Positions 43,898 through 64,000 are shown, counted from the stretch's first letter. The stretch: 64,000 bases of DNA from Gammaproteobacteria bacterium (GCA_965243395.1 CBDEUS010000001.1:608001-672000); one strand, 5' to 3'. The notes: generated from the sequence alone by a model not told the origin. Translations and numbers: made by a program.

Positions 43898-44734
43898 TTA
43901 CCCAATCCAAATTAGCATTTCCCCTTGTCCACCTACCGCTGTATCCCCTAAGTATCGTTGCACTCTACGTCGCATTGGGTGTAAGGATTGAAAAGTACTT
44001 TCGAAACTCCTCAATTCATGGAGTAAAAGAGTCAAATAACCTAAATTATGACGCCCACAATCTCTGAACCCTGAAATTACATCTTTTGGCTTATGAGGTA
44101 GCAAAATAGTACCTCTGCGCATACCTACACCTACTTGTTTGCCAATGGTGCCTAAATTGGCAATCGTGCCCGCAATCATCCTGCTCGCACAGTAATCGCC
44201 AATATTTCCCACTACCATTATGATTCCGCGTCGTAACAAGTCGCCAGTAAAATTGTTGCTATTACCATGAACAAGGATTGTTCCTCCTGACATGCCTTTT
44301 TTATTGCCAGCTTTAGCTCCTCCTAAGTAATCACCCGCATTTTTACTTATCTCAATTGTCCCACTCGACATTTCACAACCTGCAAAATCTTTAACATTAC
44401 CTTGGATATTTAATTTTCCACCTTTCAATTCCGAACCAGCATAGTGTCCAACATCACCCTCAACAATAAGTTGAACGTTTTTAGGTAAGGCAGTACCCAT
44501 GTAATCCATTTTAGAATTTGAATTTTCAAATTTAATGACCTGGTTAGAAAATTTTCCCTCGATAGTAAACAATTCACCGACTGTTGATACTTCGCTACCA
44601 ATATTCAGAGGTAAGTTTTTAGTTTCTTCGTCACTGCTCGCATCGAATATTGCTTTGCTGAGCCAACGCATATCTAAACGTTGAGACAAATTTGTATTCG
44701 AAGTGTCTTTAAATGTAACGGTTGTATGATTCAT
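43898..44734 (-). CDS. fhcC: Formyltransferase/hydrolase complex subunit C
   Basis: GXGXG beta-helix repeats; RMIAGT, GMRRGT, GDTAVGGQGE. Confidence 0.9.
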   Translation of the reverse strand: MNHTTVTFKDTSNTNLSQRLDMRWLSKAIFDASSDEETKNLPLNIGSEVSTVGELFTIEGKFSNQVIKFENSNSKMDYMGTALPKNVQLIVEGDVGHYAGSELKGGKLNIQGNVKDFAGCEMSSGTIEISKNAGDYLGGAKAGNKKGMSGGTILVHGNSNNFTGDLLRRGIIMVVGNIGDYCASRMIAGTIANLGTIGKQVGVGMRRGTILLPHKPKDVISGFRDCGRHNLGYLTLLLHELRSFESTFQSLHPMRRRVQRYLGDTAVGGQGEMLIWIG

Positions 44735-47291: not shown

Positions 47292-48542
47292 TCAAATAAG
47301 TTTGTATAGTTTTTTTACGAGCACGCTAGCAGAGGATAGTTTGCTATCTCGTAATTTTTTTAATGGTAAGGTGGCTACGCTGTCTGTCCGACAAGCTAAA
47401 CCTCGATGATCAATTCCTGGCACACCCACTGGAATGTAAACATCAGCCTGTTCAAAATTCATTTTTGGATGACCTAAGACTATGGTTGGAATATCAGTAT
47501 CAGGAGGTGCATTATTTGGATTATATGTAGCGATCCACAACAGACAGTCAGTCTCTTGCTTAAGTATCATTTTATTACCATCATAGATAACGGGATCATG
47601 TATAGGTACGCCTTGTGTAAATGAAACAGGCAAAGGTACTCCTGTTTGCCAGGTTGCGACATGATTTGCGGTTACTTCAGCTTTTGAACCACTTAGCGGC
47701 AAACCGATACAACGAACTTGTTTCATTAATAATTTAATTATTTCAGTAAGTGCTTGTACAGTGTGTTCAGCAGATTCCAGTTTAAATTCACTGGTTGTCC
47801 AAATAAGGGTTGTATATTGACTGGAAGAAATTACTTTAAATAATTTTAATAGTTCTTCACTTTCTTTATCGTGATTGGAAATATTTTCTTTTGTAATGAT
47901 CTCTTGGAAGTGATAGATAATTGATTCAAGTAATGGATAATTAAAAAACATATACGTGATGTTTTCTTTTTGTTCACATCTTGTTTTTCCGTCTTCAGAA
48001 ATATCAATTATAAAAATCTTTTTTGACTTAGTGTTTTCATTGCCTAATGTTTTTTCAGGACTTAACACACGCTGTAGTAAACGAGGAAATTTAGTCGTTA
48101 CATTTTTCCCAAAAATAACTACGCAATCGGCTCGGTTCCTAACTTCAGCTAGTGTAGTTCGTACTTCACCAATGCGTTGCATGACTGATGAACTTTTTCG
48201 CATTAATGAGCCACTAGCATGATCAATCACACCGCCCAACTTTTCTGTTAAGGCAAGGGCTTCTCTACAAGTTTGAATGTCAGCAATCAGTCCATTAACC
48301 AATGGTAATTGAGCAGTTTTCAATAGCTCAGCTGCCTTTTCGAGAGCTTGTTCTTCAGAAGCTGGCCTCCCGGCAATCATGGGCTTAGGCAGGTACTCAT
48401 CGTCTAGTGAAGCCTCGGAATAGGCTTGTTTACAAATAGGATCTGCAGGGGTTTTAAGCTGAACAGATAGCCCTGTAACTTCAACAGATAGGTCATCACA
48501 CATCAAACCACAGTGTGGGCAGGTTACCGTTTGAAATTGCAT
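47292..48542 (-). CDS. fhcB: Formyltransferase/hydrolase complex subunit B (degenerate FwdB homologue)
   Basis: CPHCGLMCDDL, TTLAEVRNRAD, WQTGVP, PGIDH; DHASGS where FwdB has the metal-ligand motif TTSVCHG. Confidence 0.9.
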   Translation of the reverse strand: MQFQTVTCPHCGLMCDDLSVEVTGLSVQLKTPADPICKQAYSEASLDDEYLPKPMIAGRPASEEQALEKAAELLKTAQLPLVNGLIADIQTCREALALTEKLGGVIDHASGSLMRKSSSVMQRIGEVRTTLAEVRNRADCVVIFGKNVTTKFPRLLQRVLSPEKTLGNENTKSKKIFIIDISEDGKTRCEQKENITYMFFNYPLLESIIYHFQEIITKENISNHDKESEELLKLFKVISSSQYTTLIWTTSEFKLESAEHTVQALTEIIKLLMKQVRCIGLPLSGSKAEVTANHVATWQTGVPLPVSFTQGVPIHDPVIYDGNKMILKQETDCLLWIATYNPNNAPPDTDIPTIVLGHPKMNFEQADVYIPVGVPGIDHRGLACRTDSVATLPLKKLRDSKLSSASVLVKKLYKLI

Positions 48543-50182: not shown

Positions 50183-51562
50183 ATGAAGAAAATGGCAGTA
50201 ATAAAAGCCAAGTGGATGAAAAGCATTGCTACATTAACGTGTGTATTGTTTGCTTCCGTAATTGGTTTCCAATCTACCGCAATGGCAGATGAGACATGTA
50301 TGTCGCCATACATGGCTAAAATTGTTGGTCAAGAAGATTATGTCTATGTTTGGACCCTAGGTGTTGAAGGCATGGGTGACGAGCAAGACAAACTCGTTAC
50401 CATTTCTGTAAATCCTGAAGCGGATACATACGGCAAAGTTGTAAATGTATTATCTGTAGGTGGGCGCAATGAAGCTCATCATTCAGGTTTAACGGATGAC
50501 CGCAAATATCTTTTTGCTGGTGGTTTAGATAGCAATAAGATTTTTATCTTTGATGTATACAGCAATCCAGCAAAACCTAAATTACACAAAGTTATTACTG
50601 ACTTTGTAGAACAAACAGGCGGAATGGTTGGACCTCACACTATGTATGCATTACCAGGTCGCATCATGGTAAGCGCACTTTCTAATAACGTTGATCATGG
50701 TGGTCGCACCGGACTAGCAGAATATACGAATGAAGGTGATTTTGTAGCTGCACACTGGATGCCTACTGACGAAGACCTTCGTGGTGCTGAAAAAGTGGGT
50801 AACGTAGCTGATGGCTATGGATATGATATACGTGCATTACCTCGACGAAATGTGATGGTGACTTCATCATTTACCGGATGGTCAAATTACATGATGGACT
50901 TTGGTCAAATGCTAGCGGACCCTGAAGCCATGAAGCGCTTTGGAAATACCGTTGTTGTTTGGGATTTGCACACACGCAAACCTAAAAAAGTATTTGAAGT
51001 TCCTGGTGCACCTTTAGAGATTCGTTGTGCATGGGGATCACAAAATAACTATTGCTTCACCACAACAGCACTTACTTCAAAAATCTGGTTGATTTATGAA
51101 GATGATGCCGGCGAATGGCAAGCTGCGGACGTGGGCGAAATAGGTGATCCTTCTAAAGTACCACTACCTGTAGACATTTCTATCACAGCAGATGATCAAG
51201 GCCTTTGGGTGCAAACTTTCATGGATGGTAAGACACGTTACTTTGATATCTCTGATCCACACGCTCCTAAGCAAACTTATGAGCACGTTATTGGATCTCA
51301 AGTGAATATGATTTCACAAAGCTGGGATGGAAAGCGTACTTACTTTACATCTTCTTTGCTTGGTAATTGGGATAAGACAGGTGAAGCTGATGAGCAGTAC
51401 TTCAAGCTATTTACTTGGAATGGTAAGAAGCTGTCACATGAGTTCACAGTAGATTTCTATGAGCTTAAGTTAGGTCGTGCGCATCAAATGCGTTTTGGCG
51501 CTTACTCATTGTACGGCCAAGCACCGAACTCTAAGGACAAAATGCTGTCTCAAGTTAAGTAA
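50183..51562 (+). CDS. mtoX: Methanethiol oxidase (selenium-binding protein SBP56 family), periplasmic
   Basis: Signal peptide then DETCMSPY; NEAHHSG, GPHTMY, SFTGWSNY and SQSWDGKR (candidate TTQ tryptophans), GRAHQM; followed by SCO and MauG-like genes as in described mtoX operons. Confidence 0.92.
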   Translation: MKKMAVIKAKWMKSIATLTCVLFASVIGFQSTAMADETCMSPYMAKIVGQEDYVYVWTLGVEGMGDEQDKLVTISVNPEADTYGKVVNVLSVGGRNEAHHSGLTDDRKYLFAGGLDSNKIFIFDVYSNPAKPKLHKVITDFVEQTGGMVGPHTMYALPGRIMVSALSNNVDHGGRTGLAEYTNEGDFVAAHWMPTDEDLRGAEKVGNVADGYGYDIRALPRRNVMVTSSFTGWSNYMMDFGQMLADPEAMKRFGNTVVVWDLHTRKPKKVFEVPGAPLEIRCAWGSQNNYCFTTTALTSKIWLIYEDDAGEWQAADVGEIGDPSKVPLPVDISITADDQGLWVQTFMDGKTRYFDISDPHAPKQTYEHVIGSQVNMISQSWDGKRTYFTSSLLGNWDKTGEADEQYFKLFTWNGKKLSHEFTVDFYELKLGRAHQMRFGAYSLYGQAPNSKDKMLSQVK

Positions 51563-51604
51563 GATAGGTGCGGTTACTAATGTAACGGCAAATTTAGTTA
51601 CTTA

Positions 51605-51640
51605 AACAAGGCCGCCCACTGAGGCGGCCTTGTTATTTTT
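51605..51640 (+). terminator. Terminator-like hairpin between mtoX and its maturation genes
   Basis: AACAAGGCCGCC-CACTGA-GGCGGCCTTGTT-ATTTTT. Confidence 0.75.
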
Positions 51641-51668
51641 GGAGACAGTAATACTTGTAATTTCATAG

Positions 51669-52427
51669 ATGAAAATTAAAAACATTAAAAACTTAATATA
51701 CATACTGATCATTTGCATGCTTATGTCATGTGATCGCACAATGGATGAAGATGCGCCATTGCCTGGCTCTCATGCAGCTGTTGCTGCTTCTGAGGTTCAA
51801 GTTGTCGCAGACGGCTGGGTGGCCGAACTTCCGTTTGAAGTACCACAACCTGGCACCTACACCCTCTCGAAAATTAACAAAGCAGCAGGTGGTATTGTAT
51901 TAGATGTCGATGGTCAGGAGTTTGACCTAGATAATTTATACGGGGACAAAATTGTACTACTTACTTTTATTTATAGTAGTTGCAAAGATCTAAACGGTTG
52001 TCCACTAGCAACTGCGGTTTTTTATAAAGTAAAAGAAAAGTTCAAAGATGATCCTAAGCTTGCAGACAAGATTCGATTAATTAGTGTAAGTTTTGACCCT
52101 GAGCATGATACACCGGAAGTTATGAAATTATATGGTGCTGGTTTTGAAGGAGGTCAACCAGAATGGCATTTCCTAACCACAACTTCTGAAGAAGCTCTAT
52201 TGCCGATTACAAGCAAGTTTGGTCAGATGGTGATAAAGCAATATGACGAATCAGGAAACTATACTGGCACTATGTCACATGTCTTGCGTGCATTTTTAAT
52301 TGATAAGAACAAAAATATCAGACAAGAGTACAGTGTTTCGTTTTTACATGATCAACTTGTTACTGCAGATATAAAAACTCTTTTAATCGAAGATGGGTTA
52401 TTAACCGCTGATGCAATAATTGAATGA
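51669..52427 (+). CDS. SCO-family lipoprotein (MtoX maturation)
   Basis: Lipobox-like LMSC; YSSCKDLNGCP, SFDPEHDTP, WHFLT, MSHVL. Confidence 0.88.
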   Translation: MKIKNIKNLIYILIICMLMSCDRTMDEDAPLPGSHAAVAASEVQVVADGWVAELPFEVPQPGTYTLSKINKAAGGIVLDVDGQEFDLDNLYGDKIVLLTFIYSSCKDLNGCPLATAVFYKVKEKFKDDPKLADKIRLISVSFDPEHDTPEVMKLYGAGFEGGQPEWHFLTTTSEEALLPITSKFGQMVIKQYDESGNYTGTMSHVLRAFLIDKNKNIRQEYSVSFLHDQLVTADIKTLLIEDGLLTADAIIE

Positions 52428-53782
52428 ACGATAAACGGAGAAAAATTTTATATTCTGTGAACGCCGGTCTGTTATTTGGTGTTCTAGTTTTGTTACTTGC
52501 TTCTAATTATCTTTACAGTTCTACCGAAAAAGAACCTGTTTCAGATGCGAATAGCAATAAACATATATTTGGGCCCGGAGATAACAAGGAGGGTTATGAC
52601 TCTATAGATTACACAACGAATACATTAGATTTGCAGAGGCGTATTGGCAAAGAAGCCGATCTTATGGAATTCGTTGATAATCCGCCATTAGGCTTGCCTG
52701 TTGTTCCAGTCCCTGACGATAACCCTATAACGAAAGAGAAGATTTTATTAGGTAGAAAGTTATTTTTTGATCGTCGACTTTCCATTAATGACACTTTTTC
52801 TTGTGCAATTTGCCATATACCTGAACAAGGTTTTACTAATAATGAAATTCAAACAGCCGTAGGGGTTGAAGGCCGATCTGGTAAACGCAATTCTCCGACC
52901 GTATATAACACTGCATATTTAGAAAAGATTTTTCACGATGGTAGGGAATCAACATTAGAACAGCAGGTTTGGGCGCCTCTATTAGCACATAATGAGATGG
53001 CGAATCCTTCAATTGGTTATGTGATAAATAAAATTAAAGCCATTCCAGACTATGATGGTTTATTTGAAAGTGCATTTAATGGTCGAGGCCCCACGATGGA
53101 AACAGTTGGAATGGCATTGGCTGATTATCAACGAGCCTTAAACTCTGCGGACTCTCCATTTGATCGGTGGTATTTCGGTAAACAAGAAGATGCGGTAAGT
53201 GAACAAGTAAAACGTGGATTTGAAATTTTCAGCGGAAAAGGGCAGTGCACAACTTGTCATTTGGTGCATGAGGATTATGCACTCTTTACAGATCATGAGT
53301 TGCATAACACGGGCTTAGGATATTTAGCATCTATGGGCACAACTTCTGAAACTACACGTGTGCAGTTAGCGCCCGGTATTTTTGCAGATGTAGATAATGA
53401 AATTATCGAGAGAGTATCAAGACCTAAAGAAAATGATTTAGGTCGGTATGAAGTTACAGAGAATCCTCATGACCGTTGGAAATTTCGTACACCACAGCTC
53501 AGGAATGTGGCTTTAACTTCTCCTTACATGCATGATGGGTCGATGCAAACGTTGCGTGAAGTTATGGAATTTTATAATCAAGGTGGCATACCAAATGAAA
53601 TATTAAGTCCATTGATTAAACCACTTGGTTTGACGAATGAAGAGATGGATGACGTAGTCGCATTTATGGAATCTCTTACAGGCAGTAATGTAGCAATTTT
53701 GGTTGCGGATGCTTTTGCAGCACCAATCGGTGATATCAGCGCGGATGATCCAAATTGGGCACATGAAAACAAAATAAAGTAG
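52424..53782 (+). CDS. MauG/di-heme cytochrome c peroxidase family (putative TTQ maturase)
   Basis: LFFDRRLS, CAICH, RNSPTVYN, CTTCH, FRTPQLRNV, PYMHDG. Confidence 0.9.
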   Translation: MNDKRRKILYSVNAGLLFGVLVLLLASNYLYSSTEKEPVSDANSNKHIFGPGDNKEGYDSIDYTTNTLDLQRRIGKEADLMEFVDNPPLGLPVVPVPDDNPITKEKILLGRKLFFDRRLSINDTFSCAICHIPEQGFTNNEIQTAVGVEGRSGKRNSPTVYNTAYLEKIFHDGRESTLEQQVWAPLLAHNEMANPSIGYVINKIKAIPDYDGLFESAFNGRGPTMETVGMALADYQRALNSADSPFDRWYFGKQEDAVSEQVKRGFEIFSGKGQCTTCHLVHEDYALFTDHELHNTGLGYLASMGTTSETTRVQLAPGIFADVDNEIIERVSRPKENDLGRYEVTENPHDRWKFRTPQLRNVALTSPYMHDGSMQTLREVMEFYNQGGIPNEILSPLIKPLGLTNEEMDDVVAFMESLTGSNVAILVADAFAAPIGDISADDPNWAHENKIK

Positions 53783-53842
53783 CATGCTTGACTCTCCAAG
53801 AATCCCAGGGTACATGATAATAAAATCAAGTGATGTAAAAAC

Positions 53843-54418
53843 ATGAAAAATTATCCACATAATTTAATTTTCTGTTTCGTAATTAATTTAGTGTTTATGC
53901 TCCCATTGAGTGCAGACGATGGACGTTTAATGGATTCTTATCCACCAAATGTGAGTGCAGAGAATTTTGAATTACCAGATTTAAATGGTGATCAGCATCA
54001 ATTAGAAGAATTTCGCGGAAAATATGTTTTAGTCAATTTTTGGGCCATGTCCTGCAATGTGTGTAAAAGCGAAATGACGACATTACAAAGCGCTTATGAG
54101 TTACTGGGAAGCGATAATATTGCAATCATCTCTATCCACGCAGGCACAAATTACGATGGGGTTGATGAGGTATTGAAAATTAACAATGTCACTTATACTG
54201 TGCTGCTTGATATAGATTTAGAATTAGGAGCGTGGGGTATACCTATACTACCCACCACTTTTATAGTAAGTCCTGAAGGCGATATTCGATACAGAGCGGT
54301 TGGCACACGCGTATGGAATTCACCATTCATGATTGATTTTATCCAAAACTTACTTGATAGTGATGAATCACAATATTCTTCGCCGCAAGCTTCATGGAAT
54401 GACCGAACTTATCTTTAG
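53843..54418 (+). CDS. TlpA-like thioredoxin
   Basis: VNFWAMSCNVC..EM, LPTTF. Confidence 0.85.
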   Translation: MKNYPHNLIFCFVINLVFMLPLSADDGRLMDSYPPNVSAENFELPDLNGDQHQLEEFRGKYVLVNFWAMSCNVCKSEMTTLQSAYELLGSDNIAIISIHAGTNYDGVDEVLKINNVTYTVLLDIDLELGAWGIPILPTTFIVSPEGDIRYRAVGTRVWNSPFMIDFIQNLLDSDESQYSSPQASWNDRTYL

Positions 54419-54470
54419 GGAGCTTATCTAAGCCTTGTTCAATCTTGTAAATGTGGAAAATAGAAGCTTA

Positions 54471-55109
54471 ATGTACAGATCGTTATTTGTTGTTATATAT
54501 TTTTTAGCGGTAGGCAGCCATGTATGGGCTGGTGGTTTAATGGACCCAATTAGTGGCAAACCTAAATCAGCTGGTTTTAACCTGGAAGATACGAAGGGAA
54601 GCAAAGTCAGCTTAGACGACTATCGTGGGAAATTTGTTCTACTCAATTTCTGGGCAACTTGGTGTGCGCCATGTCGTAAAGAAATGCCAGCAATGAGCAA
54701 TCTGCACGATGAATTTAATGGCGAGAGTTTAGAAGTCGTAGGAGTTCATGTAGGGCCCAGTTTGGCGGGCGTAAAAAAATTCTTAGAGGCTGTGCCTGTC
54801 TCATTTACTATTTTAATTGATAAAGATATGAGTTTAGCTAATTGGGGTGTGCAAGGCCTGCCTACTACTTTCTTAATTAATCCTGAAGGCAAACTAGTAT
54901 ATAAAGCAGTTGGAGAGCGTGAATGGGATTCTCCCGAAATGGTTTCTTTTTTAAAAAATATGGTAGCTAAGTACGAGCGTATGGCCGATAGTGATCAACC
55001 CGTTGAAGAATATATTCCTAAAAAGAAATCATTCTTCGCAAACTTTATGGAAAAAACATTTGGTTGGTCTAATGATCAGTGTGATACGACGAATTTAGTT
55101 CCTAATTAA
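54471..55109 (+). CDS. TlpA-like thioredoxin
   Basis: LNFWATWCAPCRKEMP, GLPTTFLI, GEREW; start is ATG 54471 or TTG 54435. Confidence 0.9.
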   Translation: MYRSLFVVIYFLAVGSHVWAGGLMDPISGKPKSAGFNLEDTKGSKVSLDDYRGKFVLLNFWATWCAPCRKEMPAMSNLHDEFNGESLEVVGVHVGPSLAGVKKFLEAVPVSFTILIDKDMSLANWGVQGLPTTFLINPEGKLVYKAVGEREWDSPEMVSFLKNMVAKYERMADSDQPVEEYIPKKKSFFANFMEKTFGWSNDQCDTTNLVPN

Positions 55110-55112
55110 AAA

Positions 55113-55403
55113 ATGTTTAATCGCTCAGCTTTTGCTGAATATGTTATTGAATATATTTCTGAATACTTCCCAGATGCAAATATTGAAGAATGGGAACATG
55201 AAAAAAATGAGTCTTTAAACTTTAATGTTGTCGAAAATGAAACAACATACATTTTACGAGTAATGGATGAATGTTTGCTTGATATTGAAGTAAATGAAGT
55301 TAAGGAATTATTAACGAGTTACAATGTAGCGCAGGTAATGCGTGATATTAGAGATTTTCCTATTGTAGTAACGAATTCCGGATGTATATTCGGCTCTCCT
55401 TAA
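55113..55403 (+). CDS. Acidic hypothetical protein
   Basis: 96-aa ORF 3 nt after the TlpA gene; no family recognised. Confidence 0.6.
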   Translation: MFNRSAFAEYVIEYISEYFPDANIEEWEHEKNESLNFNVVENETTYILRVMDECLLDIEVNEVKELLTSYNVAQVMRDIRDFPIVVTNSGCIFGSP

Positions 55404-55500
55404 ATTGCGAGATTATTTACCCCAATTCTTTGTTGGCTGAAAGGTATTCCTTTAGCCTTACATTTCCGCCATCCTTGGCGGTCATAATAAAAAATTAAAC

Positions 55501-55773
55501 CTATTCGGAAGTTGTGGGATCTATCATTCCTCTAACTTGTGAAATTTTATTTGCAGGGAAACCACCTTCTTCTGCGTGTTTGCGAATTTCATCTTCATTT
55601 GGGGCAATATATGTGCAATACACTTTGTCATCCGTTACAACACTCTCTACCCATTGAATCTGTGGGCCCATATTATTCAGAATGCTACAAGATTTTTGTG
55701 AAATTCCTTGTAGCTCTGCAGCGGTCAAATTACCGGCGCCTGGTATTTCACGTTCAATAATATATTTTGGCAT
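55501..55773 (-). CDS. DUF4242-family protein
   Basis: MPKYIIER.IPG, W.ESVV..DKVYC.Y.AP, HA..GGFPA; AGGAG RBS. Confidence 0.88.
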   Translation of the reverse strand: MPKYIIEREIPGAGNLTAAELQGISQKSCSILNNMGPQIQWVESVVTDDKVYCTYIAPNEDEIRKHAEEGGFPANKISQVRGMIDPTTSE

Positions 55774-56117
55774 GTCGGGGTCTCCTGGACGTTAATCGTT
55801 ATTATGTAATTTTTAAAAATTAGTGTATCGAATTTTGGCCTATACACGCTAGCCATTAACTTGTTGATAGTGCTTATTTATTGCTCAGCTAACTGACTAT
55901 TATGGCAGCTTACTAAGCCTAAAGCGGGTGTATAATTTGCAAAATATGCTAACATTCTATCCCTGCAGAGTTAGCACACACTACCTCATCACATTAAATA
56001 TGGGGTAGATACTGGCAGGTTCCACCAATAATCATGTCTGATAGGTGGTATCGGTTCGAATCTATTTTCTCTCGCTTTAATAAATTTGATTACTTTATGA
56101 ATTTAAAGGAATTTTAA

Positions 56118-56462
56118 ATGGCGGAGACCATGATACTAGTTCCCGGTAGATCCCAAAGCCAAGGAACCTCACTGAATGAAGGCAAACTCAAAGATGAGTA
56201 TAAGAAGGTCACTTCTACGGCTGAGTTGAATGAAAAAGACATGAAGCGACTCAAATTAAAGGATGGCGATAAGATTCGTTTGAAGTCCGATGTTGGGCAG
56301 ACAGTGGTGACTTGCAAAAGCAAAAAAGATGAGGACCTACCGACGGGAATGATATTTATTCCATATGGACCACCATCCAGTGAGCTAATGGCCGCTGATA
56401 CAGCGGGTAGTGGAATGCCTCTGTCAAAACATATGGAAGTTACTGTCACAAAGGCAAGGTAA
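56118..56462 (+). CDS. fwdD: Formylmethanofuran dehydrogenase subunit D (molybdopterin dinucleotide-binding)
   Basis: PGRSQSQG, GMIFIPYGP, DTAGSGMPLSK; AAGGA RBS. Confidence 0.88.
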   Translation: MAETMILVPGRSQSQGTSLNEGKLKDEYKKVTSTAELNEKDMKRLKLKDGDKIRLKSDVGQTVVTCKSKKDEDLPTGMIFIPYGPPSSELMAADTAGSGMPLSKHMEVTVTKAR

Positions 56463-56494
56463 ATTTTTCAAAGCAACTATTTGGAATTCTTGAT

Positions 56495-57868
56495 ATGAGT
56501 GAAACAGCACCAGCGAAAGCACCCGTAAAATCTAAAGAAGAAAATAAAAATATAAAAATTGTTAAAGATGCAACGTGCACTTTTTGTGGTTGTGTTTGTG
56601 ATGATATGGAACTTACGGTAGATCTTGATCAGCATAAAATAACCAAAGCAAAAAAAGCATGTGTGCTAGGTCGAGCATGGTTTTATGAACATACACTAGA
56701 TACTCGACCAGAAGTTTTAATCGATGGCAAAAAAGCTAGTTTTGAGGATGGCGTTGAGGCTGCGGCAAAAATATTAGTTGATGCCAAGTTCCCAATTACT
56801 TATGGCATGAGTGACTCAACGTGTGAAGCACAACGTGTCACTGTAGATATTATGGATACGATTAATGGCAATGTTGATACCACTACTTCAGTTTGTCATG
56901 GCCCATCAGGTATGGCGTTTCAGGGAGTAGGAGAGAGTACTGCTACACTTGGTGAAATTAAAAATCGTGCAGACCTCGTGATCTACTGGGGCGGAAACCC
57001 TGCTGAATCACATCCGCGCCACTTCACTCGCTATGCGGTAACACCTAAAGGGATGTACATTCCAAATGGAAAGAAAGATCGTACTGTAGTGTTATTCGAT
57101 GTGCGTAAAACACCAAGCACACCTGTTGCAGATATTTTCGTGCAAGTTAAACCCGGGAAAGATTTTGAAGTTTTGTGGGCACTGCGCGCGCTTGTTAAAG
57201 GTAAAAAAATCAGTGCAGATATTGAAGAACAAACAGGCGTATCACGTGAAGTGCTGGACGATTTAGTTGATCGCATGAAGAATTGTCAGTTTGGCGTATT
57301 GTTCTTTGGTATGGGTCTTACTATGACAAGAGGCCGTCATTTTAATTCTGGTGCATTATTGTCGCTTGCAGCAGATCTTAATGAATATACTCATTTTGTT
57401 GCCAAGCCAGTACGTGGTCACGGTAATGTAACCGGTGCAGATAATGTTGTTTCATGGCAAACAGGCTATCCGTTTGGTGTGAACTTTAATCGTGGTTATC
57501 CACGTTTTAATCCCGGAGAGTTTACTACTACAGACTTGTTATCAAGAGGTGAGGCTGATGCGGCGATGATAATTGCATCAGACCCTGCATCAAACTTTCC
57601 TAAAGCAGCTATTGAGCATCTGAAAAAAATTCCAATTATTTCATTAGATACTAAAGATACTGTCACCAGCAGTATTGCTAAAGTGCGGTTTGCGGTTTCG
57701 ACTTACGGAATTAACACCGGTGGAACAGTGTACAGAATGGATGATGTCCCTATTTCATTACGACCTGCATTTGAATCGACGTATCCGTCTGACCAGGAAG
57801 TATTGGAAGCAATACGTAAGCGGGTTAAACAAATGCTTAAGGGGGATAAGGCGCGCGTTGCAGCTTAG
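56495..57868 (+). CDS. fwdB: Formylmethanofuran dehydrogenase catalytic subunit B (Mo/W)
   Basis: CTFCGCVCDD..ACVLG 4Fe-4S ligands; TTSVCHGP metal-ligand Cys/His; TLGEIKNRAD, WGGNPAESHPRH, RGHGNV, WQTGYPF, YRMD. Confidence 0.93.
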   Translation: MSETAPAKAPVKSKEENKNIKIVKDATCTFCGCVCDDMELTVDLDQHKITKAKKACVLGRAWFYEHTLDTRPEVLIDGKKASFEDGVEAAAKILVDAKFPITYGMSDSTCEAQRVTVDIMDTINGNVDTTTSVCHGPSGMAFQGVGESTATLGEIKNRADLVIYWGGNPAESHPRHFTRYAVTPKGMYIPNGKKDRTVVLFDVRKTPSTPVADIFVQVKPGKDFEVLWALRALVKGKKISADIEEQTGVSREVLDDLVDRMKNCQFGVLFFGMGLTMTRGRHFNSGALLSLAADLNEYTHFVAKPVRGHGNVTGADNVVSWQTGYPFGVNFNRGYPRFNPGEFTTTDLLSRGEADAAMIIASDPASNFPKAAIEHLKKIPIISLDTKDTVTSSIAKVRFAVSTYGINTGGTVYRMDDVPISLRPAFESTYPSDQEVLEAIRKRVKQMLKGDKARVAA

Positions 57869-57947
57869 TATACAAGTCAAATTAATTATAAATATAGTCT
57901 TAAAAATGGTGTGATGATGCTGTGTTTTGAGACTTAAGAATAAAAAT

Positions 57948-59594
57948 ATGTCTTCAGAATTAAAAATAGTGAATGGTCGAGTCTACGACCCCGCAAATAA
58001 TATTGATGGAAAAGTTCAAGACGTCTATGTAAAGGACGGCAAGATCGTAGACTCTGTTTCAGGCTCGGCTAGCAAAATAGATGCTCACGGTATGGTGGTG
58101 ATGCCGGGTGCGGTAGATATTCATTGTCATATTGCGGGCGCAAAAGTAAATTTAGCTCGAAAGCTACAGCCCGAAGATCATCGTTTAGATGCACATCCAA
58201 AAACAGCAATCACTCGTTCAGGTACCGGGGGGATTGTGCCTTCAACATTTGCGACAGGTTATCGCTATGCAACCATGGGTTATACAACTGCGATGGAAGC
58301 AGCCGTCCCACCTATTTCTGCTAGACACACATTAGAAGAGTTAGATGACACACCTGTTATTGATAAAGGGTTTTACGTTTTACTTGGAAACAATGCATTT
58401 TTATATAAGCTGCTAAAAGAAGAACGAAAAAATGAGTTTAAAGAAGCGATAGCATGGTGGATTAATTCAGTACATGCGCACACTCTTAAACTAGTGAATG
58501 TTGGTAGTGACGAATTATGGAAAGGCCGCAAGAATGCCAATATCACTAATGTTAATGAGAAAATTGATCACTACGAAATCACACCTAATCATGTGATTGA
58601 AAGTTTTATTGAAGCAGCTCACGAACTGGGTTTGCCGCATCCTCCCCATGTGCATTGCAACAACTTAGGGCACAGTGGGAATATCAGTACTACATTGGAT
58701 ACCATGAAAGCCGCACAAGGTCGCCGTGTACATATGGCGCATATTCAATTTCACAGTTTAGGTGGCGAGCTTAATAAAAACCCTATATCAGGCGTTAAAG
58801 AAATCATTGATTATGTGAACGATAACGAAAACATTACATGTGATGTGGGCCAAGTCATGTTTGGTAAAGCAACTGCTATGACAGCCGATGCACCGTTGGC
58901 GTGGATGCTTCGAAACGTAAAGCCTGCAAAATGGGTCAATGCAGATACGGAATGTGAAAGCGGCTGTGGAATTATTCCTTTTTCATATCAAGAAAGCGTT
59001 TACACACATGCTTTGCAGTGGGCAATGGGTTTAGAATTATTTTTGCAATCAAAAGATCCTTGGCGTGTGTTGCTATCAACGGATCATCCGAACGGCGGCT
59101 CTTTTATGAGTTATCCTAAACTCATCAAATTGTTAATGGATAGTGGTTATCGAAAAGAAGCATTGCAACGTGTCAATCAAAAAGCAATTAATGCAACATG
59201 TTTAAAAGACCTTGAGCGCGAATACACATTATATGAAATTGCAATCATTACTCGAGCTGGCCCTGCACGAGCACTGGGGTTAACAAGTAAGGGGCATTTA
59301 GGTAATGGCGCAGATGCTGACATAACAATTTATACTGAAGAAGATGACAAAGAGGCGATGTTTAATGCGCCGCGTTATGTAATTAAAGATGGCGTCACGG
59401 TAATTAAAGATCATGAATTCGCGACAGATCACAAGGGAAAACTATTGCATTCAAAGCCCGGGTATAACGAAGATATAGCGGGAGAAATTGAACCATTCTT
59501 TGAAGATTATTATTCGGTTAAGTTTAGTAACTATGCTATTGGGGAAGAATATCTACATAAACACGAAGTCGTTCCAGTGATCCCGAAAGCATAA
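57948..59594 (+). CDS. fwdA: Formylmethanofuran dehydrogenase subunit A (amidohydrolase)
   Basis: DIHCHIAG, LKLVN, HVHCNNLG, HIQFHS, STDHPNG, ITRAGPARALG; likely start ATG 57948. Confidence 0.93.
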   Translation: MSSELKIVNGRVYDPANNIDGKVQDVYVKDGKIVDSVSGSASKIDAHGMVVMPGAVDIHCHIAGAKVNLARKLQPEDHRLDAHPKTAITRSGTGGIVPSTFATGYRYATMGYTTAMEAAVPPISARHTLEELDDTPVIDKGFYVLLGNNAFLYKLLKEERKNEFKEAIAWWINSVHAHTLKLVNVGSDELWKGRKNANITNVNEKIDHYEITPNHVIESFIEAAHELGLPHPPHVHCNNLGHSGNISTTLDTMKAAQGRRVHMAHIQFHSLGGELNKNPISGVKEIIDYVNDNENITCDVGQVMFGKATAMTADAPLAWMLRNVKPAKWVNADTECESGCGIIPFSYQESVYTHALQWAMGLELFLQSKDPWRVLLSTDHPNGGSFMSYPKLIKLLMDSGYRKEALQRVNQKAINATCLKDLEREYTLYEIAIITRAGPARALGLTSKGHLGNGADADITIYTEEDDKEAMFNAPRYVIKDGVTVIKDHEFATDHKGKLLHSKPGYNEDIAGEIEPFFEDYYSVKFSNYAIGEEYLHKHEVVPVIPKA

Positions 59595-59605
59595 GTTGTA
59601 ATTAG

Positions 59606-60490
59606 ATGAAAATTGGTAAAACTGAAATCGTAGACACCTTTGCTGAAGCATTCGAAATGTGTGGCTCACGTGTAATTATTACTGCTGATACAAAGCAGTG
59701 GGCACGTGCTGCGGCAGCATCCATGACCGGTTTTGCAACTTCGGTTATTCGCTGCAAACTAGAAGCAGCTGTTGAAAATGAAATACCAGAATCTGATACA
59801 CCGGATGGACGACCTGGAATAAGTGTTTTGCTATTTACCATGAGCTCTAAAACTATTGCCGGTCAATTGATAGATCGTATTGGCCAATGTGTGATGACCT
59901 GTCCCACTTCTGCTTGTTTTAACGGGTTGGAGTCTGATCGCTCTGTTTCAGTTGGTGGTAAGTTACGGTTTTTTGGAGATGGATATCAAATTAGCAAACT
60001 CGTTGATGGAATACGTATGTGGCGCATTCCCGTAATGTCCGGTGAATTTTTAATTGATGATCAATTCGGCATTCAACCTGCAGTAGGTGGCGGTAATTTA
60101 ATAATCTTTGGTTCAACAAGGGGCATTGCATTGCGTGCCTCTATCGCCGCAACACATGCTATGCGTGAAGTAGGTGGTGTATTTTTACCATTTCCACAAG
60201 GAGTAGTGCGCTCAGGAAGTAAAGTGGGCGCAAAGTATAAAGGCATGATTGCATCAACAAATGATGCCTATTGTCCAACGCTTCGATCTATTAGTGATCA
60301 TTCAGTTGTGCCTGAAAATGTAGAAGCGATTTACGAAATTGTCATAGATGGTCTCTCTGAAGAGGCAGTTAAAGAAGCCATGCGGCGAGGTCTACACGCA
60401 GCTGCTGAAAAGGGAGCTACGATGATTTCGGCTGGTAACTATGGGGGAGAATTAGGTAAGTATAAATTTCACCTCAACGAGTTAATTTGA
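59606..60490 (+). CDS. ftr: Second formylmethanofuran:H4MPT formyltransferase
   Basis: IVDTFAEAF, GFATSVI, TPDGRPG, QCVMTCPT, RSGSK, GNYGGELG. Confidence 0.94.
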   Translation: MKIGKTEIVDTFAEAFEMCGSRVIITADTKQWARAAAASMTGFATSVIRCKLEAAVENEIPESDTPDGRPGISVLLFTMSSKTIAGQLIDRIGQCVMTCPTSACFNGLESDRSVSVGGKLRFFGDGYQISKLVDGIRMWRIPVMSGEFLIDDQFGIQPAVGGGNLIIFGSTRGIALRASIAATHAMREVGGVFLPFPQGVVRSGSKVGAKYKGMIASTNDAYCPTLRSISDHSVVPENVEAIYEIVIDGLSEEAVKEAMRRGLHAAAEKGATMISAGNYGGELGKYKFHLNELI

Positions 60491-60546
60491 AATTGAATAA
60501 TTCATAAAATACAGATACATATAGAATAAATATAAAGTAACTTTCC

Positions 60547-61365
60547 ATGTCAACTGCACATTTAAAATTGCATACACAACCTGAGGTGCCGTTAGAAGCA
60601 GAGGTGCTTAGTACTGCCAAGTTATCGGGCTTATCGCAGTCTGGAATTGAGCACCTGCCTGTATTGCATGGCAATGTAAAAGCAAGTGTTGGCGATTTCT
60701 TCAAAGTTACCGGTAAAGGTAATTCAGAAATTTTGCTCGAGGGGGATTTATCGAACATAAAAATGATTGGTGCCGGCATGTCAGACGGCAAAATAATCAT
60801 TGATGGTGATGTGGGCATGCACCTTGGAATCGGCATGTCGGGCGGAGAAATAGTCGTAGAAGGTAATGCTGGAGATTGGGTGGGTCCTGAAATGTCAGGT
60901 GGTCGTATCACAGTTAAAAAAAATGCTGGCCACATGGTGGGTGCAGCCTATCGCGGCCATACAACTGGAATAACAGGTGGCGAAATATTTGTACATGGTG
61001 ATGCTAAAAATGAAATTGGCAGTGCAATGCGCCGAGGTTTTATTGCAATAGGCGGCAATGCAGGAGATTTTACAGGGGTAAATATGTTAGCGGGTACTAT
61101 TGTCGTATTGGGAGAGTTAGGCATTCGCACGGGTGCAGGTATGCGACGAGGCACTATCGCCTCCTTAGAAGATGCACCAATGTTGCCTAGTTTTGAATAT
61201 GCCTGTACATATCGCCCACTATTTTTAAGATTTTATCTCAGGAAGTTGCAAGAAAATGGCTTCAAGAGGAAAATTCAGGAAAAACACCTAAATGGTATTT
61301 ACAAACGTTATAGCGGAGACGGGATTGAACTCAATCGTGGCGAGGTTTTATTGTTTTCAAAATAA
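60547..61365 (+). CDS. fwdC: Formylmethanofuran dehydrogenase subunit C
   Basis: VPLEAEVL, GXGXG repeats, archaeal-like GAAYRG, GMRRGT. Confidence 0.92.
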   Translation: MSTAHLKLHTQPEVPLEAEVLSTAKLSGLSQSGIEHLPVLHGNVKASVGDFFKVTGKGNSEILLEGDLSNIKMIGAGMSDGKIIIDGDVGMHLGIGMSGGEIVVEGNAGDWVGPEMSGGRITVKKNAGHMVGAAYRGHTTGITGGEIFVHGDAKNEIGSAMRRGFIAIGGNAGDFTGVNMLAGTIVVLGELGIRTGAGMRRGTIASLEDAPMLPSFEYACTYRPLFLRFYLRKLQENGFKRKIQEKHLNGIYKRYSGDGIELNRGEVLLFSK

Positions 61366-61452
61366 TTCTTGATAACTTAACTTGCTTCGGAACACTCATC
61401 GCGTTTTCTATATTTGTAGTTAAATAATGTTAACAATATAGGAGACAAACTC

Positions 61453-61758
61453 ATGACTACAGTTGTAACTGAGAATTGCAAAGGCTGTCGATTTACTGAC
61501 TGCGTGTCTGTATGTCCAGTCGCATGTTTTCACTATGATGATGAAATGCTTTATATCGACCCAGATGTCTGTATTGATTGCAGCGCATGCATACCAGAAT
61601 GTCCAGTTGAAGCCATCTATGAAGAAGATGACATCCCTGAGGGTCAAGAGGGATGGGTGGAGATCAATGCAGAAAAAGCTCCTGATTTACCTTTAATCGA
61701 AGAGCCCATGGATCCATTGCCCGGTGCCGAGGATCGTAAATCAGAATTAGGATTCTAA
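61453..61758 (+). CDS. fdxA: 7Fe ferredoxin (Azotobacter FdI/FdxA type)
   Basis: VVTENCKGCRFTDCVSVCPVACF...CIDCSACIPECPVEAI with an acidic C-terminal extension; AGGAG RBS. Confidence 0.9.
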   Translation: MTTVVTENCKGCRFTDCVSVCPVACFHYDDEMLYIDPDVCIDCSACIPECPVEAIYEEDDIPEGQEGWVEINAEKAPDLPLIEEPMDPLPGAEDRKSELGF

Positions 61759-61782
61759 ACTTACTAAATTTAAAAAATGAGA

Positions 61783-61809
61783 GCGCACAGTCAAAAGGCT
61801 GTGCGTTTT
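61783..61809 (+). terminator. Terminator-like hairpin after the ferredoxin gene
   Basis: GCGCACAGTC-AAAA-GGCTGTGCGT-TTT. Confidence 0.55.
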
Positions 61810-61845
61810 ACGTTTTGAATAGAATAATAAAAATAGGTATCGCTC

Positions 61846-63222
61846 ATGAGTATTGGAACTGAATCGAATCCCTTAAAAGTAGCTATTGTGGGTAGTGGCC
61901 CAAGTGGTTTCTATGCAACCGAAGCATTAATCAAATCGGATCTTAATGTTGAAATTGATTTAATTGAAAGATTGCCTGCACCTTTTGGTTTAGTTCGTAA
62001 TGGTGTAGCCCCTGACCACCCTAAACTTAAACAAGCTATTGAAGTTTACAAAAAGATTGCACAAAGCCCTGAATTTAATTTTATTGGTAATGTAACGGTG
62101 GGCCAAGATGTTACAGCTGAAGATTTACAAAATACGCATCATGCCGTCATCTATACATGTGGTGCAGAGACTGATCGTAAACTGGGTATCCCAGGAGAAG
62201 ACCTGCAAGGTAGCTACACGGCAACAGAATTTGTAGGTTGGTACAACGGTCATCCGGATTATCGAGATCGTACATTTGACCTCTCTCATGAAACCGCCAT
62301 TGTAATTGGGCAAGGTAATGTGGCAGCAGATGTATCACGGATACTGGCAAAGTCTGTTGACGAATTAAAGCATACAGATATTTCTCAACATGCCTTGGAC
62401 GCTTTAGCAGACAGTAAAATTAAAACAATCTATGTAGTAGGACGTCGTGGCCCCGCGCAGGCAAAGTTTGCTTCAAAAGAACTAAAAGAGTTTTTAGAAA
62501 TAGAAAATTGTCGACCTTACATAGATCCTAAAGAACTAGAGCTTAATGAAACCAGTCAGCAAGAACTGGAAATGAAAGAAGGTCGTGGTAATAAAAAGAA
62601 TGTTGAAATCTTTCAAAAGTTTGCTGAATCCGAAGATGCTGGTAAACCGCGTACATGTATTTCTACATTTCTAAAAAGCCCTGTTCGTTTAGAAGGAGAA
62701 GGGCGTTTACAAAAAGCCGTGTTTGAAATTAACGAACTCTCAGGTGAGCCCTTCAAGCAATCTGCAAAAGGTACGGGTGAAACTATGGAAATTGAATGTG
62801 GAATATTATTTCGTAGTATTGGTTACAACGGTGTTCCCATACCAGGTGTACCTTTTTATGATCGATGGGGCACCATCCCAAATGAGAATGGACGCATAAC
62901 AACAGAACAAGGTGGCGATGTAGTGCTGGGATTGTATACAGCAGGTTGGATTAAACGTGGTCCATCTGGAATTATCGGAACCAATCGTGCTTGTGCTGTG
63001 GAGTCCGTAGATATGTTATTGGAAGACGTATCTAAATTATCTACAGACAAACCAGGCCGTGAAGCGTTGTATAAAATTCTAGATGCAAATAATGTTCAAT
63101 TCATCAATTATGATCAATGGATGAAAATTGATGCAGCGGAAGTGGCGGCAGGCGAATCTAAAGGTAAGCCACGCGAAAAATTCACTCGTCGTGAAGAAAT
63201 GTTAGCGATAGCAAATGGATAA
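61846..63222 (+). CDS. Ferredoxin-NADP+ reductase, FprA/adrenodoxin-reductase type
   Basis: VAIVGSGPSGFY, GVAPDHP, FVGWYNGHP, IGQGNVAADV, GRRGPAQ, GWIKRGPSGIIGTN, PREKF. Confidence 0.92.
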   Translation: MSIGTESNPLKVAIVGSGPSGFYATEALIKSDLNVEIDLIERLPAPFGLVRNGVAPDHPKLKQAIEVYKKIAQSPEFNFIGNVTVGQDVTAEDLQNTHHAVIYTCGAETDRKLGIPGEDLQGSYTATEFVGWYNGHPDYRDRTFDLSHETAIVIGQGNVAADVSRILAKSVDELKHTDISQHALDALADSKIKTIYVVGRRGPAQAKFASKELKEFLEIENCRPYIDPKELELNETSQQELEMKEGRGNKKNVEIFQKFAESEDAGKPRTCISTFLKSPVRLEGEGRLQKAVFEINELSGEPFKQSAKGTGETMEIECGILFRSIGYNGVPIPGVPFYDRWGTIPNENGRITTEQGGDVVLGLYTAGWIKRGPSGIIGTNRACAVESVDMLLEDVSKLSTDKPGREALYKILDANNVQFINYDQWMKIDAAEVAAGESKGKPREKFTRREEMLAIANG

Positions 63223-63350
63223 AAAACTATTCCACTTTATCCGTTTTTATGCTACTTGCATCAGATAGATAATTTGTAAAGTTTTATAAATATAATATTG
63301 TTTTACTTAATTAAAGTGAAATTTTATTAATTTATAAAAAGGGGACAAAT

Positions 63351-63848
63351 ATGCTCTCTATGCGAAATATTACTGGGATATCTATCATTTTGTCTGCAAT
63401 CATCCTTACTGGTTGCGGTACTGCTAAAACTGTTGTACTTGAAGCACCTGATGTATCAACAAAATTCAATGAAGTTGAACTCGTAGCAAACAATCCTACT
63501 GTTAATGTTCCTGAGGAAGTAGATGTATTACTTCGGACTACAATAGAAAAAGGTCTCATTGAAGAAGGAAGTTTTGTTAAAGGTAATGATTTACAAATTC
63601 AATATACATTTGTAAATCATGATGAAGGCAGTCGTGCAGCGAGATGGTTCTGGGGTGGCTTAGGTAATGCAGGTGAAGGTACTGTTACAGTCATGGTGGT
63701 GTATCTTGATAAAGATCAAAAAGAACTGGCCAAGACTCAAGTAGAAGGTAAAATTGGTAGTGGTTTTTTTGGAGGTTCAATGAATGAAGCAATAGTAAAA
63801 GCTGGAGAAGATATTGTAGAATTTACCAAACAAAACTTTTCTGAGTAA
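63351..63848 (+). CDS. Lipoprotein, DUF4410-like
   Basis: Lipobox LTGC; DEGSRAARWFWGGLGNAG, GFFGGS. Confidence 0.75.
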   Translation: MLSMRNITGISIILSAIILTGCGTAKTVVLEAPDVSTKFNEVELVANNPTVNVPEEVDVLLRTTIEKGLIEEGSFVKGNDLQIQYTFVNHDEGSRAARWFWGGLGNAGEGTVTVMVVYLDKDQKELAKTQVEGKIGSGFFGGSMNEAIVKAGEDIVEFTKQNFSE

Positions 63849-63870
63849 ATATATTAACTATTATCATTTA

Positions 63871-63899
63871 AAAAGGCAGCCTAGTGGCTGCCTTTTTTT
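63871..63899 (+). terminator. Rho-independent terminator
   Basis: AAAAGGCAGCC-TAGT-GGCTGCCTTTTTTT. Confidence 0.9.
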
Positions 63900-64000
63900 A
63901 TGCCTAAAACATCATTAAAAAATTAAAAAATCACGGTATAGACGTTAGTGAATTTAAGAAAAACTTTTGAGTAATTCACGAGTCGAGGCGAATGCAAGCT

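Follow-up and report, generated by a model that had tools for sequence, protein, structure and literature searches.

A Bacterial Formyl-Methanofuran Dehydrogenase Gene Cluster Linked to a 7Fe Ferredoxin and an FprA-Type Reductase: A Putative Electron Outlet to NADP+

Introduction

In the textbook view, bacteria kept only Fhc, the formyltransferase/hydrolase complex, which is a hydrolytic remnant of the formyl-methanofuran dehydrogenase (Fwd) of methanogens. A stretch of 64,000 nucleotides (nt) from a gammaproteobacterial genome (GCA_965243395.1 CBDEUS010000001.1:608001-672000), here called the window, raises the question of whether this view is complete. At positions 56118-63222, on the plus strand, it contains a module of seven genes: fwdD, fwdB, fwdA, ftr and fwdC, a gene for a 7Fe ferredoxin (fdx), and a gene for an FprA-type ferredoxin-NADP+ reductase (fnr). 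Could these genes encode a working dehydrogenase, and where would its electrons go? Based on comparative genomics, the module may encode a bacterial formyl-methanofuran dehydrogenase that is competent for redox chemistry, works in the oxidative direction and has an electron outlet of its own to NADP+. We give this reading a probability of roughly 0.55.

The original prediction for this locus had listed the same seven open reading frames (ORFs), and all of them are found where it placed them, on the plus strand. For comparison, a FwdB scan of species-representative genomes returned 478 matches. The best 80, with FwdB identities of 74-94%, were kept, and their loci (L001-L080) were compared with the window by tblastn with the window's proteins. 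According to their bin labels, which are unverified, 71 of the 80 relatives are gammaproteobacterial, counting six "Porisulfidus" records; these labels include Candidatus (Ca.) Oxydemutator(aceae), Thiotrichales, Chromatiales and the bin USCg_Taylor. Three more are labeled only as Proteobacteria or Pseudomonadota, and six as other phyla.

FwdB and FwdD Resemble Pterin-Bearing Subunits

The first question is whether the catalytic subunit can do redox chemistry at all. The gene fwdB (56495-57868, +) encodes the predicted catalytic subunit with a molybdenum or tungsten (Mo/W) bis-pterin and an N-terminal [4Fe-4S] motif, and its product scores 508 bits on TIGR03129 (cut-off 328 bits). It matches the archaeal FwdB chains 9sfi_Q, 8rja_B and 5t5i_B with 394, 381 and 375 bits. 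Its match to FhcB of Methylorubrum extorquens (6s6y_B), which is pterin-less, is only 54 bits and covers only residues 254-446. An assignment of the window's FwdB as FhcB-like was considered and rejected on these scores (54 bits against 375-394 bits).

The catalytic residues Cys118, His119 and Arg288 are numbered here after M. wolfeii FwdB. Their roles are described in the available text of PMC6926001, according to which Cys118 is replaced by Ser in FhcB. The same text reports that FhcB lacks the cluster domain and the catalytic residues, that the D subunit is absent, and that the complex releases formate. The motifs TTSVCHGP and RGHGNV, which the original prediction had pointed out, are present in the window's FwdB, and their residues C134, H135 and R307 align with Cys118, His119 and Arg288. 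All four [4Fe-4S] ligands that it had claimed are likewise kept, as C28, C31, C35 and C56 match the cysteines of M. wolfeii FwdB. These seven residues are invariant in 81 of 81 sequences, that is, in the window protein and its 80 orthologues. By this invariance and the scores above, FwdB resembles archaeal FwdB rather than the pterin-less FhcB, in line with the original prediction. The additional cysteine C33, inside the cluster motif, is also invariant in all 81. None of the 81 sequences contains selenocysteine; the catalytic residue is Cys throughout. The N-terminus of the window's FwdB (56495-56560) is a Lys/Ala/Pro-rich extension of about 20 residues before the point where archaeal FwdB starts.

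Upstream of fwdB lies fwdD (56118-56462, +). It encodes a stand-alone molybdopterin-dinucleotide-binding "fourth domain", which would cap the pterin site (PF01568, 48.8 bits; NF042908, 84 bits). FwdD chains in the PDB are matched with E-values from 1e-18 to 2e-7, including FwdD-2 (2ki8, E 1.1e-18) and 5t5i_D (E 3.3e-11). The gene fwdD precedes fwdB in 79 of the 80 loci, and the contig of the 80th begins at fwdB. The synthesis of the bis-molybdopterin guanine dinucleotide cofactor can be expected in this organism, because the window holds a formate dehydrogenase (FDH) alpha subunit of equivalog rank.

These facts give good support to the placement of FwdB and FwdD with the pterin-bearing kind, rather than with FhcB, and to redox competence of the predicted enzyme. 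If FwdB and FwdD were instead a cofactor-less scaffold as in Fhc, the complex would only release formate. The Fhc-like layout of the operon would fit such a scaffold. Every residue whose loss defines FhcB is kept in all 81 sequences, however, and FwdD is retained in 79 of 80 loci. Besides, a degenerate FhcB encoded in the same genome has these residues replaced, which shows what relaxed selection does to them. A scaffold of this kind is thus hardly credible.

Linkage of fdx and fnr to the fwd Genes

The second question is whether the ferredoxin and the reductase belong to the enzyme. The gene fdx (61453-61758, +) encodes a ferredoxin of 101 amino acids (aa), and fnr (61846-63222, +) a reductase of 458 aa. 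Whether they follow fwdC could be judged in 61 of the 80 loci, in which fwdC is complete and the sequence extends for 450 nt or more past its end. Among the remaining 19, 16 lack a complete fwdC in the locus and three end within 450 nt. In 57 of the 61 loci, fdx and then fnr come directly after fwdC. One more locus has fdx after fwdC, and its contig ends 312 nt later; fdx thus follows fwdC in 58 of 61. In three loci (L053, L075 and L079), both genes are missing behind fwdC, and mch, mtdB-like and ATP-grasp genes of the tetrahydromethanopterin (H4MPT) pathway stand there instead. L007, one of the 16 loci without a complete fwdC, has fdx and fnr after a fragmented fwdC. The median spacers are 78 nt between fwdC and fdx and 67 nt between fdx and fnr, and the latter gap is 13 nt in many loci.

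The flanks of the block are variable. They were compared in 55 loci that have fwdD and a full-length fnr. Downstream of fnr, 13 loci have fhcB, one has fdhB, 34 have none of the window's genes, and seven reach the contig end. Upstream of fwdD, 21 loci have an SCO4226-like gene and one a fdx-like fragment; 27 have none of the window's genes, and six reach the contig end. The DUF4410 gene found downstream in the window is seen in none of the 80 loci. Pfam searches on the flanks of six chosen loci (60 ORFs) revealed at least five different settings. L062 and L071 have an H4MPT island upstream (GHMP-kinase-like, Mpt_N, ATP-grasp, MCH and RimK, with Fae in L062). L025 is flanked by sugar-nucleotide genes upstream and psd downstream, L036 by a gene for a Calx-beta protein upstream and an Xre/RES pair downstream, L049 by unnamed ORFs, and L013 by the mtoX operon upstream and cysS downstream. 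Because the block is kept while both flanks vary, the seven genes appear to travel as a unit. The expectation that fdx and fnr would stay next to fwd in relatives is borne out by the 57 of 61 loci, and comparative genomics strongly supports a linkage of both genes to fwd.

It could be argued that fdx and fnr serve general redox housekeeping and are mere neighbors of fwd, and that the true partner of FwdB is encoded elsewhere. Against this stand the constancy of the seven-gene block between variable flanks, the short spacers, and a window without another iron-sulfur (Fe-S) carrier. The ferredoxin also scores below the equivalog cut-off for FdxA, as a specialised paralogue might. On the other hand, FdxA-type ferredoxins are widespread in Proteobacteria, for which an NCBIfam model exists, and all 80 loci come from one FwdB clade, so that common ancestry, rather than selection, may explain part of the synteny. 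On balance, mere neighborhood is an unlikely explanation.

Several arrangements around the block were seen in single loci or groups of loci. In 13 loci (L033, L035, L039, L043-L046, L058, L059, L061, L064, L072 and L073), fhcB-A-D-C follow directly after fnr on the same strand, which makes an 11-gene fwd-fdx-fnr-fhc supercluster. L074 has genes for NAD-type FDH after fnr, and in L063, L075 and L078 fhc genes precede fwdD. In L076, a second ferredoxin-like fragment (L076:2-160) lies upstream of fwdD at the start of the contig; it is 66% identical to the ferredoxin of the window over half the length of the latter and is additional to the fdx behind fwdC. L048 (MUGK01000048.1, Chromatiales bacterium USCg_Taylor) has fwdD-fwdB-fwdA with a FwdB 75% identical to that of the window, and its contig ends before fwdC.

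A promoter scan of 55000-64000 gave 14 promoter-like sites, compared with 28.4 expected from shuffles, and is uninformative; in this same uninformative scan, no promoter-like site fell in 55773-56118, upstream of fwdD. A perfect TATAAT at 55931-55936, upstream of fwdD, was spotted by eye.

The Ferredoxin and the Reductase

What kind of electron carriers are these? Residues 4-95 of the ferredoxin can be aligned with A. vinelandii FdI (1axq, E 2e-28) and its mutants, with every Cys matched. Nine Cys residues are invariant in all 60 aligned ferredoxins, and their pattern corresponds to one [3Fe-4S] and one [4Fe-4S] cluster. On NF045490, the NCBI model of proteobacterial FdxA, the score is 114.8 bits, under the cut-off of 135; this fits a specialised paralogue. 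A relationship to FwdG was considered and rejected: FwdG and FwdF match the ferredoxin only via the generic cluster motif (E 1.3e-4). Across the relatives, the ferredoxin is the best conserved of the seven module proteins, with a median identity of 82%, followed by FwdB (77%), FwdA (69%), FwdD (68%), Ftr (67%), the reductase (67%) and FwdC (63%).

The reductase aligns over its full length with M. tuberculosis FprA (1lqt_A, E 2.9e-108, residues 9-456) and bovine adrenodoxin reductase (1cjc_A, E 7e-100). M. tuberculosis FprA is listed in the PDB as an NADPH-ferredoxin reductase. The motifs GxGxxG (residues 16-21), for flavin adenine dinucleotide (FAD), and GRRGP (199-203) are invariant in 54 of 54 aligned reductases. 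The Arg pair of GRRGP presumably binds the 2'-phosphate of NADP(H), as in adrenodoxin reductase and FprA. Judging from these features, the ferredoxin and the reductase look like a cognate pair.

No polyferredoxin gene of the FwdF, FwdG or FwdH type had been noticed in the window originally. A six-frame scan for CxxCxxCxxxC agrees with this, as its three hits in the window are two in FdhA and one in the ferredoxin of the module. Because the 64-kb window has no polyferredoxin of the FwdF/G type, no Fe-S carrier other than the adjacent ferredoxin is available there. A complex prediction for FwdB and the ferredoxin scored 0.06 and 0.19, against a mark of 0.32 and without controls, and speaks neither for nor against binding.

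Between fdx and fnr, the window contains a 12-bp hairpin with a T-rich tail (61781-61816, +), which is terminator- or attenuator-like. Of 58 relatives, 11 have a counterpart. Apart from two, these are close relatives, and the stem sequences of the counterparts differ and still pair. The other 47 lack it; their gaps are often too short, and no locus with a gap of 9-40 nt has the hairpin. Within the clade of the window, its effect may be a lower expression of the reductase relative to the ferredoxin, or a more stable upstream message.

Such uncoupling of expression levels would suit a different role of the pair. The ferredoxin might accept the electrons of Fwd and feed other low-potential reactions, with NADP+ not being the main sink; the reductase would then poise the ferredoxin pool or keep the enzyme reduced and active. 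The higher conservation of the ferredoxin than of the reductase (82% against 67%) points in the same direction, as does the fact that three loci manage without either gene. On the contrary, fnr comes after fdx in 57 of the 58 loci where this can be judged, the 58th ending 312 nt past fdx. The gap between the two is often just 13 nt, and GRRGP, presumably of the NADP type, is invariant in 54 of 54 sequences. We therefore regard a main sink other than NADP+ as improbable, about as much so as the mere neighborhood of housekeeping genes, and retain NADP+ as the proposed acceptor.

Hybrid Character of the Cluster

The remaining three genes show where the cluster stands between Fwd and Fhc. The gene fwdA (57927-59594, +) encodes the amidohydrolase subunit for hydrolysis or synthesis of formyl-methanofuran (TIGR03121, 695 bits, above the cut-off). 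Its true start is most likely ATG at 57948 rather than TTG at 57927, because a start at this ATG yields a protein of 548 aa, which is the most frequent length in the orthologues, and the alignments with homologues begin at this point. The nearest archaeal FwdA is 9sw6_I (473 bits), compared with 347 bits for FhcA of M. extorquens. The gene ftr (59606-60490, +) encodes formylmethanofuran:H4MPT formyltransferase (PF01913 and PF02741; TIGR03119, 410 bits). Its product matches FhcD (6s6y_D, 303 bits) marginally better than archaeal Ftr (1ftr, 297 bits). The position of ftr between fwdA and fwdC gives the order B-A-ftr-C, which is the order of fhcBADC as given for the Fhc operon in the available text of PMC6926001.

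The gene fwdC (60547-61365, +) encodes the beta-helix scaffold subunit (TIGR03122, 252 bits, above the cut-off). The sequence match of FwdC to FhcC (6s6y_C) extends over residues 14-268, and the archaeal matches end at 163-223. An AlphaFold2 model of FwdC (64 sequences; predicted local distance difference test, pLDDT, 95) has C-terminal helices at 225-239 and 245-248. In Foldseek, the TM-score by query (TMq) of this model is 0.91 to 6s6y_C and 0.86-0.87 to the archaeal structures 5t5i, 5t61 and 8rja, while the archaeal E-values are better. According to the available text of PMC6926001, a C-terminal helix-loop-helix replaces the archaeal beta-hairpin in FhcC and is a docking platform for Ftr. 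The model is only suggestive of an FhcC-like C-terminus in FwdC.

The name "archaeal-type", given to the cluster in the original prediction, is therefore right in part. FwdB, FwdD and FwdA are archaeal-like by score, whereas the operon layout is that of Fhc and the FwdC model has its best TM-score with FhcC. By sequence and model, the cluster is a hybrid built on the plan of Fhc and not purely archaeal-type. The complex probably contains Ftr, as in Fhc, and yet retains the dehydrogenase, as in Fwd.

Two relatives differ from the window in the B-A pair. L026 is the closest relative by flanking genes (93-99% protein identity), with identities of 94-99% for FwdD, Ftr, FwdC, the ferredoxin and the reductase. 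Its FwdB and FwdA (L026:10001-13065, against 56495-59594 in the window) are only 77% and 66% identical. There are two explanations: recombination replaced B and A together, or the bin is a chimera. In L001, FwdB is 94% identical to that of the window, but FwdA is 71% identical.

Proposed Reaction and Its Direction

Based on the known chemistry of Ftr and FwdA/FhcA, Ftr would take the formyl group off formyl-H4MPT and load it onto the furan cofactor, and FwdA would hydrolyse the resulting formyl-furan cofactor to formate. Because the catalytic residues are intact, this formate may not be released, unlike in Fhc, but oxidised to CO2 at the Mo/W-pterin of FwdB/FwdD. Given the gene linkage and the lack of another carrier in the window, the electrons might then pass from the [4Fe-4S] cluster of FwdB to the 7Fe ferredoxin, and from there over the FAD of the FprA-type reductase to NADP+. 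The net reaction would be formyl-H4MPT + NADP+ + H2O -> CO2 + H4MPT + NADPH, in parallel to Fhc and the NAD-type FDH. Gene content, intact catalytic and cluster residues and gene linkage are observed; the cofactor loading of FwdB, the ferredoxin as its partner, the direction, and NADP+ as the end acceptor are inferred from them.

The couple CO2/formyl-methanofuran lies at about -530 mV and NADP+ at -320 mV. The oxidative direction would thus be strongly downhill. In the opposite direction, NADPH would reduce the reductase and then the ferredoxin, and Fwd would fix CO2 to formyl-methanofuran for C1 assimilation. FprA-type enzymes normally reduce ferredoxin, which is in line with such a flow, although NADPH at -320 mV cannot drive a couple at -530 mV without bifurcation or energy input. 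Archaeal Fwd is reversible, and the available text of PMC11493965 describes the pterin site as alike in CO2-fixing and CO2-releasing enzymes, with the partner setting the direction; this would also allow a reductive module. The cluster encodes no bifurcating module, and its context is oxidative: the mtoX operon lies upstream, Fae, mch and mtdB-like genes occur near the cluster in relatives, and Fhc and FDH are encoded in the window. CO2 fixation by this module is thus very unlikely, more so than either of the alternatives for the ferredoxin and the reductase.

Several facts weigh against an oxidative Fwd with an outlet to NADP+. All 80 relatives come from metagenome bins and none from a cultured strain, and their restriction to one FwdB clade leaves room for simple inheritance. 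The pair of fdx and fnr is not obligatory, because L053, L075 and L079 do without it, and L052 has about 1.3 kb after fwdA (L052:12346-13661) with no match to ftr, unlike the other loci. The hairpin between fdx and fnr speaks against strict co-transcription, in the window's clade only. The ferredoxin falls short of the FdxA cut-off. Archaeal Fwd is oxygen-sensitive, the 4Fe-4S cluster of FdI is of very low potential, and FprA-type reductases in aerobes usually run from NADPH to ferredoxin. Moreover, a free ferredoxin would have to dock without FwdG.

A Parallel Route beside Fhc and Formate Dehydrogenase

Why would the organism need this enzyme? The window contains a second, paralogous set on the minus strand: an fhcB-like gene (47292-48542), fhcA (45644-47287), fhcD/ftr (44709-45626) and fhcC (43898-44734). 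The product of fhcA is nearest to 6s6y_A (400 bits). On TIGR03129, the FhcB-like protein reaches 234 bits, which is less than the cut-off, and it has Leu, Met and Ser at the positions of Cys118, His119 and Arg288. It keeps the N-terminal CxxCxxxC...C (C8, C11, C15 and C37), which is missing from FhcB of M. extorquens, and may be a scaffold with an Fe-S cluster still bound. The identities between the fhc and fwd sets are 25% for B, 43% for A, 53% for ftr and 34% for C.

Directly downstream of fhcC, a NuoE/F-like fusion of an NAD-type formate dehydrogenase is encoded (42128-43804, -; TIGR01959, 371 bits), followed by FdhA (39321-42077, -), which scores 773 bits on TIGR01591 (cut-off 666). By its predicted genes, the organism has the standard route from Fhc over formate to NAD-type FDH and, 8 kb away, an intact Fwd. 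Because the degenerate Fhc set and the FDH lie so close, Fwd is read as a second, parallel route and not as a replacement. Two routes could be kept for a different yield (NADPH or NADH), for avoiding free formate, or for different metal needs.

A formaldehyde source is likely found directly upstream of fwd, in a methanethiol oxidase operon (50183-55403, +) predicted to encode MtoX, SCO1, a MauG-like di-haem peroxidase, two TlpA/ResA-like thiol-disulfide proteins and a 96-aa ORF (orf96). MtoX scores 762 bits on NF052453 (cut-off 650). The mtoX operon lies upstream of fwd likewise in the close relatives L002-L023 and L026.

Comparison with Known Systems

The archaeal FwdABCDFG of M. wolfeii (5T5I), a tungsten/molybdenum enzyme, has homologues of its FwdB, D, A and C in the module. 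Its FwdB is about half identical by eye to that of the window (375 bits), with the Cys motif and the catalytic trio kept. The module differs in that ftr is inside the operon, that a 7Fe ferredoxin and a flavoprotein reductase are encoded while FwdF and FwdG are absent from the window, and that it belongs to a bacterium with a probably aerobic way of life.

FwdABCDGI of Ca. Ethanoperedens thermophilum (8RJA), as described in the available text of PMC11493965, contains a flavin module instead of FwdF and reduces F420 while it oxidises formyl-methanofuran; the authors conclude that the direction resides in the electron partner, not in the active site. It resembles the proposed system as an oxidative Fwd in which the polyferredoxin is replaced by a flavin reductase and the acceptor is of middle potential (FwdB, 381 bits). 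In the archaeal complex, by the same account, FwdI is a bound subunit with clusters of its own, FwdG is kept, and the acceptor is F420. In the module, the ferredoxin is a free-standing 7Fe protein, the reductase is an FprA-type FAD enzyme, and NADP+ is the proposed acceptor; the two reductases are not homologous.

FhcABCD of M. extorquens (6S6Y) shares with the module the B-A-ftr-C order and the bacterial H4MPT context; by score, Ftr is marginally nearest to FhcD, and the sequence match of FwdC runs through the C-terminus with FhcC only. In the available text of PMC6926001, its FhcB has no cluster domain or catalytic residues, D is missing and formate is released, whereas the module has all of these features that Fhc lost. 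M. tuberculosis FprA with the 7Fe FdxA, and bovine adrenodoxin reductase, resemble the other half of the module, in the full-length alignment of the reductase and the FdI/FdxA type of the ferredoxin. In those systems, electrons flow from NADPH to P450s and other acceptors; the flow proposed here is the reverse.

The layout of the fwd and ftr genes is also known from an actinobacterial single-cell genome from Hakuba. The available text of PMC7325909 reports an operon fwdDBA-ftr-fwdC, the same order as in the module and likewise with no fwdE, F or G, as well as the N-terminal [4Fe-4S] domain and Cys118. That host is described there as an anaerobe with the Wood-Ljungdahl pathway in which methanopterin synthesis genes were not seen, and a role in CO2 or CO metabolism is proposed. 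A ferredoxin/reductase pair is not mentioned in this text. A superfamily survey counts 149 bacterial FwdB representatives and ascribes them to transfer from Archaea (PMC10100899, available text), and a paper on a Methylobacter bin names "fwdABCDE" without analysis (PMC13322032).

In the literature searched, with supplements and Adam et al. 2019 (on the H4MPT branch) outside its scope, no description was found that connects Fwd of a bacterium to a ferredoxin of the FdI type and a reductase of the FprA type. This agrees with the original statement that no characterised module of Fwd, FdI and FprA is known. The same literature contained nothing that treats a bacterial Fwd as a parallel route to Fhc in aerobic Gammaproteobacteria. 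The bacterial fwdDBA-ftr-fwdC layout was thus already known; by the literature searched, the link to the ferredoxin and reductase and the putative parallel route to Fhc would be new.

If the proposal is true, bacteria would have a second way to finish C1 oxidation, which yields CO2 and NADPH rather than formate and then NADH. Aerobic sulfur- and C1-oxidising Gammaproteobacteria, including sponge symbionts and a bin of the upland soil cluster gamma, would turn C1 units into CO2 with no free formate in between and gain NADPH, and metabolic models would change for uncultured marine, sponge-associated and soil lineages. After the archaeal Fwd that reduces F420, it would also be a second example of a CO2-converting enzyme whose direction depends on its electron partner and not on its active site.

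It can further be speculated that the module is a self-contained, three-part formyl-methanofuran:NADP+ oxidoreductase and represents, in living organisms, a stage between archaeal Fwd and bacterial Fhc. The formyltransferase would already have joined the complex with the dehydrogenase still kept, and the polyferredoxin would have been exchanged for a 7Fe ferredoxin and an FprA-type reductase. We put this forward tentatively and at somewhat less than even odds. In the available text of PMC6926001, the proposed path from Fwd to Fhc has three steps: the dehydrogenase is lost, Ftr comes to dock on FhcC, and a new site for binding the furan arises. The module looks like a form with the second step but without the first. 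The second FhcB of the window, with its cluster motif kept and its catalytic residues lost, looks like another intermediate.

Other Genes in the Window

No rRNA or tRNA genes were found in the 64-kb window. The region 1504-8869 is a cyanate/thiocyanate island. It encodes a cyanase (1504-1947, -), a CynR-like LysR regulator (2163-3098, -), thiocyanate hydrolase subunits (3274-4830; gamma subunit, TIGR03887, 380 bits), a DsrE-like protein (5319-5681) and an ABC transporter of the NrtA/SsuA type (5745-8869). An rpoE-rseAB-degP-lepA stretch, typical of gammaproteobacteria, is also present and, with the labels of the relatives, underlies the assignment to this class. A 114-aa ORF at 31816-32160 (+) matches the Pfam family HopJ (PF08888, 167 bits), and the next ORF (32178-32780) is assigned to DUF938/methyltransferase.

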